Part shown: positions 12,561 to 14,378 of the stretch, in pieces
How positions within the stretch are numbered: position 1 is the first letter of the stretch
Layout: every line of letters begins with the position of its first letter
From: Candidatus Jordarchaeales archaeon
GTDB taxonomy: Archaea > Asgardarchaeota > Jordiarchaeia > Jordiarchaeales > Freyrarchaeaceae
Direction of reading: 5' to 3'
DNA: 16,951 bases
Assembly (NCBI GenBank): GCA_038858525.1
Contig: JAWCFL010000035.1
Span: forward strand, 1-16,951
Made by a program: the position numbers and the translations under genes
The notes under the pieces: generated by a model
Database searches by the model: none
Told to the model about the DNA's origin: nothing
The model's input: the letters and a program-made list of their open reading frames with translations, nothing else

Positions 12561-14378
12561 ATGTCGCCGGAGGACTTCTACGAGGAAGCTTTCTTTACGG
12601 GTAGGATGATCGCTCAGGCTGTCAAGTGGTGTCGGGAAAGGGAAGGCAACGTCATCGACGTAATTGTTCAGGGTACATGGAGGAGCGGCGAGCCTTTTAG
12701 GTGCTCAGGCCGCGTCGTTGAAGCGCGCTTCCATTCCCTCAAAAAATACCTTGTTGTCGTCTTGGAGAATGGGGTGAGAGGAAGAGAGCGCCTTGGGAAA
12801 GGAGTAGTTGTCACCGTTGGGGGCGCGCGCTCCAAGTGTGACGTGAAAGCGTCAAACATTGTGTTCAGGAATCGGCTCAGGAAGTCCACTTCTCAACTCG
12901 TGTTTTTCAACGGTAACGAGTTGAGTTCTGCCGTCAAATGGATCCGAAGAAACCTCCCACTGAAAAAGATACACGGAAGAGTGGAAGGAGTATGGCTGCG
13001 AAGCGGTGCCGAATTTATAGGTGAGGGCGAGGTGCTTGCAACCGAAGATAACCCCTTTAGGAAGTCCTTCGCTATATTCGTAAATAAAGGAATGATCGAG
13101 AAGCGCAAAGTGAATGAATTAATTGTATCTGTCGGCGGGCTCCCTCTAAGATATCGATTAGAGTTACCCATAAGGAATTTCCTCGCAATTCTTCTCGATT
13201 ATTATGTCGGGAGGATGTTAAGGGATGCCTACCTGCTCTCATGCAAGTGCGGCTTAGGAGTCTTCCTTAATAGCGAAGCAGCAGTTAGGGTTCGGAGAGT
13301 TATCAGCGACTTGATAAAGCGTACTACCTCCTTCCTCTCTAGGCAAACCGGGAACCTGACTAGTGTTGACGTCGTAGCCAGCAAGGTTCTCCTCGAGCCA
13401 AAGCAGGAAGTTGTACCCTCTGACGAGTATGCTCTAAGGATTCGCGGGCTCACAGTTTCATATGGCAAAAAAGTCGTTTTGAAGGATGTTTCCTTCTCCC
13501 TGAAGGAGGGGGAAATCCTAGGAATAATCGGTGAGTCTGGTAGTGGAAAAACCACCTGCATGAAGGCATTAATAGGAGAACTAAAGCCAGACTCCGGGGA
13601 AATACTCATATGCGGTTTCCCTCCATCCCGGAAGGACGTTATCGCTCCACTTATAGGATACGTGCCCCAAGACCTCAGCAGGATGTATGAAAACTTCACC
13701 CCTATAGAGAACATAGTTTACTTCGGGAGGCAGTATGGGATCTCGGAGGATGAACTAATAAAGAGGGGTAAACGCATCCTTAAGGAGCTGGATATTTTCC
13801 ACAAGGGGAACGAGAAGGTTGAGACGTTAAGCGGCGGGGAGAAGAGGAGGGTCAGCATAGCTATAGCACTCGTCCACAACCCCCGAATACTTTTCCTTGA
13901 CGAGCCAACCAGTGGGTTAGACCTCGTAAGGCGGCACGAGCTCTGGAGCTACTTGGAAAAGATCAACAGGACATATGGCACCACGCTTGTAGTTATAACT
14001 CATTATCCCTCTGAAGCAGACTACTGTGACAAGGTTGCAGTCTTCGTGAAAGATAAGGGATTCGTAGACTTTGGAGCGCCAAAGGAGTTGGTCTCGAAGC
14101 TTCCGGGGAGCGGCTACGCCATAGGACTAGTGCTCGAGGAGGATGACCCTGCAGCAGAGGACGTGATAAGAAGCACTGAAGGCGTTAGCCACGTTTTCAG
14201 AGTAGGACCATACTACAAGGTTCTTGTGGGGGACGAGGAAAACAGGGTGGTCATCAAGCGTATTCTGAGCCACTTGTCTTCAAGAGGAATAAAAGTTTAC
14301 AAGGTTGAACCAAGAGTCGAGCTTACCTTTGAAGATTACTTCAGATATATAACGGGGGTTAGAGTATGGCGTCCATAA
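12561..14378 (+). CDS. ABC-2 exporter ATPase with an approximately 290-aa N-terminal extension of two TrmB C-terminal-like repeats
   Basis: Walker A GESGSGKT, Q-loop GYVPQ, LSGGE, Walker B LFLDEPT and H-loop THY. N-terminus has two repeats AVKW..V.G.W.SG..F...G.V..VGG. ATG 12561 preferred over TTG 12534. Confidence 0.9.
   Translation: MSPEDFYEEAFFTGRMIAQAVKWCREREGNVIDVIVQGTWRSGEPFRCSGRVVEARFHSLKKYLVVVLENGVRGRERLGKGVVVTVGGARSKCDVKASNIVFRNRLRKSTSQLVFFNGNELSSAVKWIRRNLPLKKIHGRVEGVWLRSGAEFIGEGEVLATEDNPFRKSFAIFVNKGMIEKRKVNELIVSVGGLPLRYRLELPIRNFLAILLDYYVGRMLRDAYLLSCKCGLGVFLNSEAAVRVRRVISDLIKRTTSFLSRQTGNLTSVDVVASKVLLEPKQEVVPSDEYALRIRGLTVSYGKKVVLKDVSFSLKEGEILGIIGESGSGKTTCMKALIGELKPDSGEILICGFPPSRKDVIAPLIGYVPQDLSRMYENFTPIENIVYFGRQYGISEDELIKRGKRILKELDIFHKGNEKVETLSGGEKRRVSIAIALVHNPRILFLDEPTSGLDLVRRHELWSYLEKINRTYGTTLVVITHYPSEADYCDKVAVFVKDKGFVDFGAPKELVSKLPGSGYAIGLVLEEDDPAAEDVIRSTEGVSHVFRVGPYYKVLVGDEENRVVIKRILSHLSSRGIKVYKVEPRVELTFEDYFRYITGVRVWRP

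Follow-up and report, generated by a model that had tools for sequence, protein, structure and literature searches.

In the importer ATPases MalK, ModC and MetN, a small accessory domain on the nucleotide-binding domain (NBD) serves as the binding site for a ligand or regulator and either inhibits the ATPase or tunes it; these domains are C-terminal and have TOBE- or ACT-type folds. Rv1747 of M. tuberculosis is an ABC exporter with two N-terminal FHA domains, and FHA domains bind phosphothreonine. In the ABC-2-class exporter WzmWzt, the Wzt ATPase has an extra beta-rich cytoplasmic domain that recognises the sugar of the O-antigen cap and modulates ATP hydrolysis, and which is C-terminal, single-copy per chain and dimeric (PMC9445017). 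The transcription factor TrmB (P. furiosus and T. litoralis; PDB 2F5T and 3QPH) binds the non-reducing glucosyl of alpha-glucosides, and six of its seven sugar contacts (Asn305, Gly320, Met321, Val324, Ile325 and Glu326) are in the barrel of its second effector subdomain; ligand binding is the sole characterised role of this type of barrel, and only Gly320 and Glu326 are contacts common to TrmB, TrmBL1, Tgr and MalR (PMC4158304).

We analysed a 16,951-nucleotide stretch of DNA (the window) from a hot-spring Asgard archaeon of the Freyarchaeota/Jordarchaeia lineage, in which a fused gene encodes NBD1 of an ABC-2 transporter with two ATPases. In its product, the C-terminal beta-barrel subdomain of the TrmB effector domain occurs twice in succession and makes up the first ~290 residues. 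Each barrel has the strand, helix and flattened seven-stranded barrel of the second TrmB effector subdomain, but the protein differs from TrmB in having no winged helix-turn-helix and no first effector subdomain and in not being a transcription factor; instead, two barrels in a row are joined to an ABC ATPase. Like Wzt it is an ABC-2-class exporter ATPase with an additional beta-rich cytoplasmic domain, although here the module is N-terminal, tandem, of another fold and confined to one of the two distinct ATPases. It also departs from MalK, ModC and MetN in its N-terminal position, its TrmB-type barrel and its ABC-2 exporter-type system, and resembles Rv1747 in having tandem small beta-rich modules N-terminal to an exporter NBD, with fold and lineage different. 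The gliding-associated GldA/GldF/GldG system and the generic 'ABC-type uncharacterized transport system' share with this system the DrrA/GldA-like ATPase, the ABC-2 permease and, in relatives, a GIFT/ABC_transp_aux membrane protein. Unlike GldAFG, there are two distinct ATPases, one with TrmB barrels, and the auxiliary protein is a pseudo-subtilase that is unlinked in the window's genome; with 118.9 bits for the fused and 154.6 bits for the second, both window ATPases stay below the 402.6 bits required of a GldA equivalog.

Fused sensing or selecting domains on ABC ATPases are already known; the fold, position and tandem arrangement seen here are not described in the literature searched, and searches for PF11495/Regulator_TrmB outside regulators, or for Asgard subtilisin with ABC and GldG, found no description. 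The initial annotation did not recognise the architecture as described, which holds insofar as no paper was found, but automatic Pfam annotation already tags PF11495 and ABC_tran on relatives.

The two-ATPase locus

The fused ATPase gene lies on the forward strand at 12561..14378, within a reading frame that is open from a TTG at 12534 and gives 614 aa if read from there, or 605 aa from the ATG at 12561; residues are numbered here from the TTG. Two homologues begin exactly at the equivalent of Met10, and the ATG at 12561 is therefore probably the true start. An A/T-rich, TATA-like stretch is present at ~12516–12528 and may serve this start. One metatranscriptome library has contigs over 12400–12584 and 12598–12975 only; DNA carry-over is possible, and we do not take these as expression.

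The ABC nucleotide-binding domain (aa ~299–530, 13428..14123, forward strand) matches PF00005 with 110.6 bits and has a complete set of motifs: Walker A (GESGSGKT, 333–340), Q-loop (VPQ, 377–379), signature (LSGG from 432; 432–436), Walker B with the catalytic Glu (ILFLDE, 452–457), and H-loop His490 (within THY from 489). It is followed by a DrrA/GldA-type C-terminal domain (aa ~531–614, 14124..14375) modelled with pLDDT ~90 and aligned to the drrA family TIGR01188 as far as aa 608; the TIGR01188 score of 183 bits over aa 309–608 is below the curated cut-off of 312 and indicates only a subfamily-like relationship. Downstream on the same strand, and overlapping the end of the fused gene by 13 nt, is a gene for an ABC-2 permease of 387 aa (14366..15529; PF12698 and PF12679) with ~6 hydrophobic segments and a ~155 aa loop between the first and second, and then a DrrA-type second ATPase, NBD2 (15534..16511, 325 aa), which has all motifs intact and no N-terminal extension. 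These matches and the adjoining permease agree with the earlier assignment of the fused protein as an ABC-2/DrrA-type exporter ATPase. Upstream, at 11660..12463 on the same strand, is a multi-pass membrane protein resembling PrsW (EEAAK at 82, HILID at 224); it has no Pfam match, and compares with PrsW clusters of the ESM Atlas at 0.92 by features and at a TM-score of 0.68 by structure. A gene for a GIFT/ABC_transp_aux auxiliary protein is absent from the window.

An assembly artefact or accidental fusion could in principle join barrels and ATPase, but we regard this as having a negligible chance of being right. The barrel/NBD junction near 13428 is bridged by contigs from three independent hot-spring studies (X11 covering the full stretch, X12 covering 12518–14062 and X9 covering 12550–13825), and the same layout is found in ORFs of 540–650 aa in more than 100 genomes; we found no support for an artefactual fusion, which these data refute.

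Tandem TrmB-type barrels precede the ABC domain

The strand and helix of the first barrel stand at the very N-terminus of the protein. Repeat 1 (aa ~15–117, nt 12576..12884, forward strand) is composed, like TrmB residues 248–341, of one strand, one helix and a beta-barrel, and repeat 2 (aa ~120–294, nt 12891..13415) is the same barrel interrupted by an insertion. Compared with each other (BLASTP, aa 10–118 against aa 119–300), the repeats have 30 % identity over 80 aa with an E value of 2e-7, and an HMM built from repeat 1 only recovers repeat 2 in full-length family members, with a domain E of 1e-17 at best; in the group that has diverged furthest the values are no longer significant (0.19 and 2.9). 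The internal duplication proposed from the sequence is thereby borne out. Its proposed span, 12588–13397, agrees with these boundaries but overlooked the interruption of repeat 2 by a helical hairpin of ~65 aa (aa ~205–269, nt 13146..13340), which lies between the VGG motif (aa 200–202) and the last strand, VDVVASKVLL (aa 278–287), the counterpart of CDVKASNIVF in repeat 1. The hairpin is specific to the window's own family and is missing from relatives of 540–590 aa; its helices (196–229 and 239–260 in model numbering) have pLDDT values of 54–77, compared with 85–94 for repeat 1 in the full-length model.

Several lines of evidence identify the fold. PF11495 matches with 28 bits against a cut-off of 22.2, in two stretches, the better of which is in repeat 2 (aa 144–188) and covers only profile positions 165–211 of 233; relatives match positions 162–232. 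Profile comparison with hhalign gives a probability of 90.6 % and an E value of 1.3e-6 over TrmB 256–335. Structurally (VIA-align), repeat 1 superimposes on 3qph_A with Z 12.9 and an rmsd of 1.7 Å over 89 aa (22 % identity), and repeat 2 (model range 111–285) on residues 248–342 of 2f5t_X with Z 12.8 and 2.2 Å over 89 aa; among 48,161 representative solved chains, only TrmB scores Z ≥ 8. ESM Atlas models of TrmB regulators fit the barrels with an rmsd of 1.7–2.5 Å over 86–90 aa, and Foldseek also supports the likeness. At the sequence level the signal in the PDB is faint: a profile of 15 repeats places 2f5t and 3qph at the top, weakly (E 0.045), and searches with the N-terminal 300 aa, a six-sequence profile, a second-half profile and aa 1–125 of the relative P0014 gave no TrmB match; a protein-atlas feature search with aa 10–298 gave no usable match. 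The structural matches cover only TrmB 248–342, so that the second effector subdomain is present twice and the first (the eight-stranded sheet with helix E-alpha3 and Ser229) is absent. No helix-turn-helix (PF01978) is matched by Pfam at E up to 1, and no C-terminal TOBE domain is matched by Pfam or represented among the structural matches listed; the extension here is N-terminal. The fold and the lack of a helix-turn-helix had both been anticipated in the initial annotation, whose consensus for the TrmB subdomain (F..AV..AEITG..TGRVV..VKVGG..EDY..I.F) agrees with the actual TrmB sequence and whose statement that the VGG loop touches the sugar is correct for TrmB, through Gly320 and Met321 (PMC4158304).

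The barrels have the FF, A259, G278, G291, VGG319-320 and D327 motifs in common with TrmB, but the sugar contacts are mostly replaced. The counterpart of the TrmB contact loop K317–Y328 is the loop T94–V104 of repeat 1 (TVGGARSKCDV, nt 12813..12845), in which G96-G97 correspond to G319-G320, C102 to E326 and D103 to D327. Only Gly320 is retained among the six barrel contacts (G97 in repeat 1, G202 in repeat 2). At the position of Glu326, repeat 1 has Cys102 and repeat 2 has Val278; Asn305 aligns with Leu73 or Arg82, depending on the aligner, and there is no Asn at that place. Repeat 1 has one residue fewer in the segment M321–I325, and repeat 2 has the hairpin in its place. When six close homologues are compared, the repeat 1 loop is one of the most strongly conserved segments, with T94, V95, G96, R99, C102, D103 and V104 invariant, and across 39 sequences from several Asgard families E17, F21, W32, R36, G47, G59, N113, G152 and G165 are invariant, W32 and R36 being family-specific invariants that TrmB lacks. 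Of these 39 sequences, 33 retain Asp103, and at position 102 there are 25 with Glu and 10 with Cys. The equivalent of M321–I325 is the family's most variable part and the site of large insertions; the Loki/Sigyn group has 46 aa inserted in repeat 1. Repeat 1 is the better conserved of the two, and repeat 2 is degenerate and probably a structural adaptor.

Conservation of the module and its Asgard cassette

The module is carried by 114 of the 301 sampled genomes of the phylum and is near-universal in five families (f1, f2, f7, f12 and f23), the same families that have a full-length pseudo-subtilase. It is an ancestral, conserved part of an Asgard cassette which, outside the window's family, comprises the permease, the fused ATPase, a giant GIFT-domain pseudo-subtilase and the second ATPase; there, the pseudo-subtilase gene is between the two ATPase genes in 13 of the 17 loci examined and beside the fused ATPase in three more. 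Cassette orthologues match the window proteins in phmmer searches with E values of 1e-88 to 1e-134 for NBD1, 1e-26 to 1e-109 for the permease and 1e-79 to 1e-109 for NBD2, and a sister family (locus L002) has NBD1, permease and NBD2 in the same order as the window. The PrsW-like gene is conserved at its position only in the window's own family.

The pseudo-subtilase is 1400–1760 aa long and has a GldG/GIFT/ABC_transp_aux domain, a C-terminal transmembrane helix and a conserved cytoplasmic helical tail of ~75 aa. In the window's genome the orthologue is elsewhere (contig C4:51865-56115) and is 44 % identical to that of Freyarchaeum. We considered whether this giant S8 protein might be an active protease that depends on the transporter for its export or activation and rejected the idea, as 13 of 14 copies have another residue in place of the catalytic Ser; the catalytic His is Arg in five copies, and the copy in the window's genome also has Gly for the catalytic Asp. 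A complex prediction pairing the N-terminal module with the tail of its own pseudo-subtilase (residues 34–110) scored 0.01 against a mark of 0.32, which counts neither way.

A search of the window's whole genome (completeness 92.7 %) with PF11495 gave no match at a genome-wide E of 0.01, so that no canonical TrmB is recovered at this threshold, which the window's own weak domain match likewise fails to reach. In 61 Asgard genomes scanned with the same profile, no TrmB-like regulator matching the whole profile was found, and barrel-only matches came solely from ORFs of 553–607 aa, the size of the fused ATPases. Stand-alone relatives with a single barrel occur in some genomes as small ORFs with Arg-rich tails.

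Possible roles of the barrels

The interpretation we favour, tentatively and with rather less than even confidence, is that the barrels form a binding module in the cytoplasm, through which a signal from that compartment is coupled to the hydrolysis of ATP at NBD1. A ligand or other signal would be bound by the barrels and passed to NBD1, making the NBD1/NBD2 pair asymmetric and regulated in the way that the fused accessory domains of MalK, ModC, MetN and Wzt suggest; allosteric control of export, as first proposed, is plausible by this analogy. Repeat 1 would be the likelier ligand site, because it is conserved more strongly than repeat 2 and still has the GG-x4/5-(E/C)D loop, which touches sugar in TrmB, and repeat 2 would be a structural adaptor that in the window's family also bears the hairpin. 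Wzt, whose fused carbohydrate-binding domain modulates ATP hydrolysis in an exporter of the same class, is a precedent (PMC9445017), and the tether of the module to the NBD is short, with ~12 residues between the last strand of barrel 2 and the first strand of the NBD. Several observations count against a binding module: the subdomain that closes the TrmB pocket (helix E-alpha3, Ser229) is missing, Asn305 and Glu326 are lost in the window protein, the variability of the M321–I325 loop would be expected of a surface loop under little constraint no less than of a specificity loop, and the full-length AF2 model (pTM 0.52) does not predict a defined arrangement of the module against the NBD. To our knowledge, moreover, the regulatory domains of known ABC ATPases are C-terminal and have other folds.

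The initial annotation went further and read the barrels as built-in sensors through which maltose, trehalose, glucose or sucrose would exert allosteric control over export. The shared fold and the retained VGG motif are compatible with this, but the replacement of Glu326 by Cys102 and Val278, the loss of Asn305, the shortened or hairpin-substituted contact loop and the absence of Ser229 with its subdomain make TrmB-style sensing of alpha-glucosides unlikely in the window protein, and we consider it highly improbable; because Glu326 became an invariant Cys, the ligand in the window's lineage is probably not an alpha-glucoside. An unlikely alternative is that the barrels select cargo in the cytoplasm: the transported substrate, a glycan or a lipid-linked oligosaccharide, would be recognised by its sugar head group and passed to the ABC-2 channel, as capped O antigen is by the carbohydrate-binding domain of Wzt (PMC9445017). 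The known ligand of the barrel is a non-reducing glucosyl, the Gly320 and Glu326 equivalents are retained in repeat 1 of most lineages linked to the pseudo-subtilase (Glu in 25 of 39), and the partner protein has a GldG/GIFT/ABC_transp_aux domain. The window's family, however, has Cys for Glu326, no glycosyltransferase genes are present in the window and none were noted beside the cassettes examined, and the domain of Wzt differs in fold, is a dimer and sits at the C-terminus.

It is conceivable, to much the same limited degree, that the barrels bind no small molecule and dock a protein (such as the ~75 aa tail of the pseudo-subtilase, NBD2 or, in the window's family, the PrsW-like protein), fixing stoichiometry or relaying a conformational change. 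The strict conservation of the cassette, with the pseudo-subtilase gene adjoining in 16 of the 17 loci examined outside the window's family, the membrane anchor and conserved tail of that protein, and the family-specific invariants W32 and R36 argue for docking, and the lineage-specific insertions (the hairpin here, the 46 aa in Loki/Sigyn) resemble added interaction surfaces; the TrmB-type barrel, on the other hand, has no known protein-binding role. A nucleic-acid-binding, Sm-like function, under which the ATPase would be more than a transporter subunit, seems to us scarcely credible: Sm/Lsm and Pelota N-domains are the next-best structural neighbours and the stand-alone relatives have Arg-rich tails, but the Z scores of 5–6 are at background level, and the fused proteins lack a basic tail and always adjoin an ABC-2 permease. 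More doubtfully than either cargo selection or docking, the barrels might be the recognition head, on the cytoplasmic side, of an Asgard-specific surface machine built from an ABC-2 transporter and a site-1-protease/OST48/IFT52-like pseudo-subtilase, and might select or report glycan-type cargo.

The TrmB sugar-binding barrel is thus not confined to transcription factors: an ABC ATPase carries it in duplicate, and some genomes encode it by itself in a short ORF. The module belongs to a conserved, Asgard-only cassette with a giant GIFT-domain pseudo-subtilase partner. The value of the window's own family is more modest, as it is derived: Cys has taken the place of the key Glu, the partner gene is no longer linked, and a gene for a PrsW-like protease has been gained on the upstream side. 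The module, being small and soluble and having a loop that is a candidate ligand site, is the most tractable way into the function of the cassette. If it is a recognition head, a sensor barrel would have been borrowed from a transcription factor, and a soluble domain of ~100–200 aa would offer the first experimental handle on an undescribed, eukaryote-reminiscent system.

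Duplication, fold and spread of the N-terminal module

The first ~290 aa of the fused ATPase (614-aa ORF, 12534-14378, + strand; residues numbered from 12534) contain an internal duplication, with aa 10-118 and 119-300 sharing 30% identity over 80 aa (BLASTP, E 2e-7), which confirms the tandem N-terminal repeats of the initial annotation. An HMM of repeat 1 detects repeat 2 in full-length relatives, the match being weak or not significant in the most diverged ones. Pfam Regulator_TrmB (PF11495) matches the fused ATPase at 28 bits against a cut-off of 22.2 bits, in two stretches that each lie within the final third of the profile, and a 15-repeat profile aligns with residues 256-335 of the sugar-sensing regulator TrmB (hhalign, 90.6% probability, E 1.3e-6).

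Residues 10-298 were modelled with AlphaFold2 (pLDDT 72), and the model was compared exhaustively with 48,161 representative chains of solved structures. Repeat 1 superposes on 3qph_A 248-341 (Z 12.9, rmsd 1.7 Å, 89 aa) and repeat 2 on 2f5t_X 248-342 (Z 12.8, rmsd 2.2 Å, 89 aa); these two TrmB matches are the only ones at Z ≥ 8, and the other matches, at Z ≤ 7, are to helical hairpins of a generic kind or to Sm/Pelota-like barrels. Foldseek returns both TrmB structures with probability 0.99-1.0, ESM Atlas models of TrmB regulators superpose on each repeat with rmsd 1.7-2.5 Å, and the pLDDT of the barrels is 85-94 once the alignment is deeper. Because Pfam, structure comparison, Foldseek, ESM Atlas and hhalign all agree, the likeness of both repeats to a TrmB effector domain was correctly observed, as was the TrmB motif given with it, which agrees with the actual TrmB sequence.

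Repeat 2 is interrupted after its VGG motif (aa 200-202) by a helical hairpin of ~65 aa (aa ~205-269, pLDDT 54-77), beyond which aa 278-287 form the last barrel strand; the hairpin is absent from relatives of 540-590 aa. Lokiarchaeota and Sigynarchaeota members (P0019, P0040-P0048) carry an insertion of ~46 aa in repeat 1 instead (columns 42-88 of the module alignment, A6), at a different site; the barrels tolerate, or exploit, lineage-specific insertions. Barrel 2 is tethered to the nucleotide-binding domain (NBD) by ~12 residues, and the full-length model (pTM 0.52) does not settle where the module sits on the NBD.

An assembly artefact is ruled out by the occurrence of the module across genomes and by contigs that bridge the module-NBD junction, with at most 5 differences, in three independent metagenome studies of hot springs, so the fusion is real. 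The repeat profile finds the module in 114/301 sampled genomes of the phylum, near-universally in families f1 (4/4), f2 (6/6), f7 (72/76), f12 (17/19) and f23 (6/7), and not in many other families of this sample. Only 17 clusters matched among 1.84 billion representatives, most full-length ones also carrying ABC_tran; all named members of the family are Asgard (Frey/Jordarchaeia, Sigyn-, Loki-, Hel- and Thorarchaeota). As to whether the architecture is undescribed, our literature search found no paper on TrmB-type barrels on an ABC ATPase, but PF11495 has already been assigned to relatives by automatic annotation, for example to 74% of the 127 archaeal ATPases, mostly from Thorarchaeota, in one ESM Atlas cluster.

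In 61 genomes of the phylum scanned with PF11495 itself, most matches lie in ORFs of 250-290 aa and are limited to positions ~1-137 of the profile, which correspond to the first effector subdomain; barrel-confined matches (positions ~133-231) occur only in ORFs of 553-607 aa, the size of the fused ATPases. The window's own genome gave no match at a genome-wide E of 0.01. Other Asgard genomes encode stand-alone barrel ORFs of 135-162 aa (L039:6881-7369, L040:5985-6392, L041:6953-7372, L042:6948-7385 and L043:3307-3714), each with a single barrel and, behind it, a tail very rich in Arg (R runs, or RD/RY repeats), and not adjoining ABC genes; nucleic-acid binding by these is possible.

The transporter genes and the pseudo-subtilase

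Four genes form a single + strand run at 11660-16511, encoding a 267-aa multi-pass membrane protein (11660-12463), the fused ATPase, an ABC-2 permease of 387 aa (14366-15529, overlapping the fused ATPase gene by 13 nt) and a second ATPase of 325 aa (15534-16511). Pfam and NCBIfam place both ATPases in the DrrA/GldA-like group of the ABC-2 type, the type first proposed for the fused one, and the permease in ABC2_membrane_2/3; catalytic motifs are complete in both ATPases. The true start of the 614-aa ORF is probably ATG 12561 (Met10), the position at which two homologues start exactly, and a putative TATA-like A/T-rich stretch lies ~35-45 nt upstream. Two contigs of one sediment metatranscriptome library (12400-12584 and 12598-12975, at least 99% identity) hint weakly at transcription of the gene start, DNA carry-over being possible.

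Directly after the second ATPase gene, a TnpB/Cas12f-like TNB-domain ORF (16564-16950, - strand) is cut by the contig end, and the assembly break is probably marked by an IS element; in close relatives this neighbourhood has a PTA_PTB-like gene, an M42 peptidase and a class-I aminoacyl-tRNA synthetase gene (tRNA-synt_1c). Housekeeping neighbours at 240-1717 (+), 5169-9643 (-) and 10267-11403 (-) include ComA and ComB (phosphosulfolactate synthase and phosphatase), the large and small chains of carbamoyl-phosphate synthase, and the archaeal fructose-1,6-bisphosphate aldolase/phosphatase, whose gene shows synteny with the cassette within the window's family.

Among 17 loci outside that family (ORF calls and phmmer), the fused ATPase gene adjoins a gene for an S8-family protein of 1400-1760 aa in 16, and the order permease, fused ATPase, S8 protein, second ATPase is kept in 13. 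In the lineages of L021, L022 and L029 (families f23 and f9) the cassette has two permease genes instead of one, and the second ATPase gene is found at its opposite end or on the opposite strand. The S8 protein has an N-terminal anchor, the S8 domain, a GldG/GIFT/ABC_transp_aux/DUF4350 domain, a C-terminal TM helix and a conserved, helical cytoplasmic tail of ~75 aa. Its catalytic Ser is replaced in 13/14 copies, Arg stands in for His in 5, and the protein is a pseudo-protease.

In the window's own family (the window, L008, L009, L025 and L026) the pseudo-subtilase gene is not adjacent to the transporter genes. The window's genome encodes it on another contig (G000:C4:51865-56115; L037:9818-14119), unlinked from the transporter, as a protein of 1433 aa with 44% identity over its full length, a broken triad (Asp to Gly, Ser to Ala), an oxyanion Asn to Asp change, and the TM helix and conserved helical cytoplasmic tail of ~75 aa (IPELD...GE) at its C-terminus. 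Full-length pseudo-subtilase and N-terminal module occur in the same families, which is not independent evidence of interaction, because inheritance of the cassette as one unit would produce the same pattern. The product of 11660-12463 is conserved across the window's family, whose cassette lacks the pseudo-subtilase gene; in no other family does its gene immediately precede that of the fused ATPase. The protein has no Pfam match and resembles PrsW intramembrane metalloproteases (features 0.92, structure TM 0.68; ESM Atlas), with motifs EEAAK at 82 and HILID at 224.

Comparison with the TrmB sugar site

In TrmB the non-reducing glucosyl touches Asn305, Gly320, Met321, Val324, Ile325 and Glu326, all in the second effector subdomain, with Ser229 in the first; TrmBL1, Tgr and MalR keep only Gly320 and Glu326 (PMC4158304). 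The fused ATPase shares with TrmB the fold of the second subdomain, the VGG glycines and, in both repeats, an equivalent of Asp327; unlike TrmB, it has the barrel doubled on an ABC ATPase, and Pfam and structure comparison find neither the first effector subdomain nor an HTH, the latter absence being as initially described. The TrmB contact region, VKVGG(320)MFAVIE(326)DYESTEIKF (P0049), has as its counterpart in repeat 1 TVGGARSKCDVKASNIVF, with a loop one residue shorter, G96-G97 at G319-G320, Cys102 at Glu326 and Asp103 at Asp327. In repeat 2, G201-G202, Val278 and Asp279 take these positions, and the contact loop is gone, with the hairpin in its place. The residue aligned with Asn305 varies with the aligner, being Leu73 or Arg82.

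The suggestion of TrmB-style sugar sensing is not supported: Glu326 is replaced by Cys102 or Val278, Asn305 is not kept and the subdomain with Ser229 is missing, and alpha-glucoside binding of this kind by the window protein is unlikely. Position 102 is Glu in 25/39 family members and Cys in 10/39, the latter mostly or wholly from the window's own family; such binding is conceivable for the Glu-bearing relatives. Across the 39 members, E17, F21, W32, R36, G47, G59 and N113 are invariant in repeat 1, and repeat 2 has just two invariant residues, G152 and G165. Because invariants concentrate in repeat 1, it is the conserved copy and a candidate ligand site, repeat 2 being degenerate.

Possible roles of the module

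The fold, the duplication, the ~12-residue tether and the conservation over deep Asgard lineages are established. The module would be a cytoplasmic binding module that distinguishes the NBD of the fused ATPase (NBD1) from that of the second ATPase (NBD2), and may couple a signal to ATP hydrolysis. The reading that we tentatively favour is a small-molecule sensor or regulator, because ligand binding is the only known role of the barrel and the repeat 1 loop is conserved within subfamilies. Selection of cargo by the module, for which Wzt provides a precedent (PMC9445017), seems rather unlikely to us, and we give about the same small chance to a role in protein docking.

We rate the fused ATPase as belonging to a known class, that of NBDs with a fused accessory binding domain. 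The main value of the module lies in the tractable handle that it offers on an undescribed Asgard ABC-2/pseudo-subtilase system.
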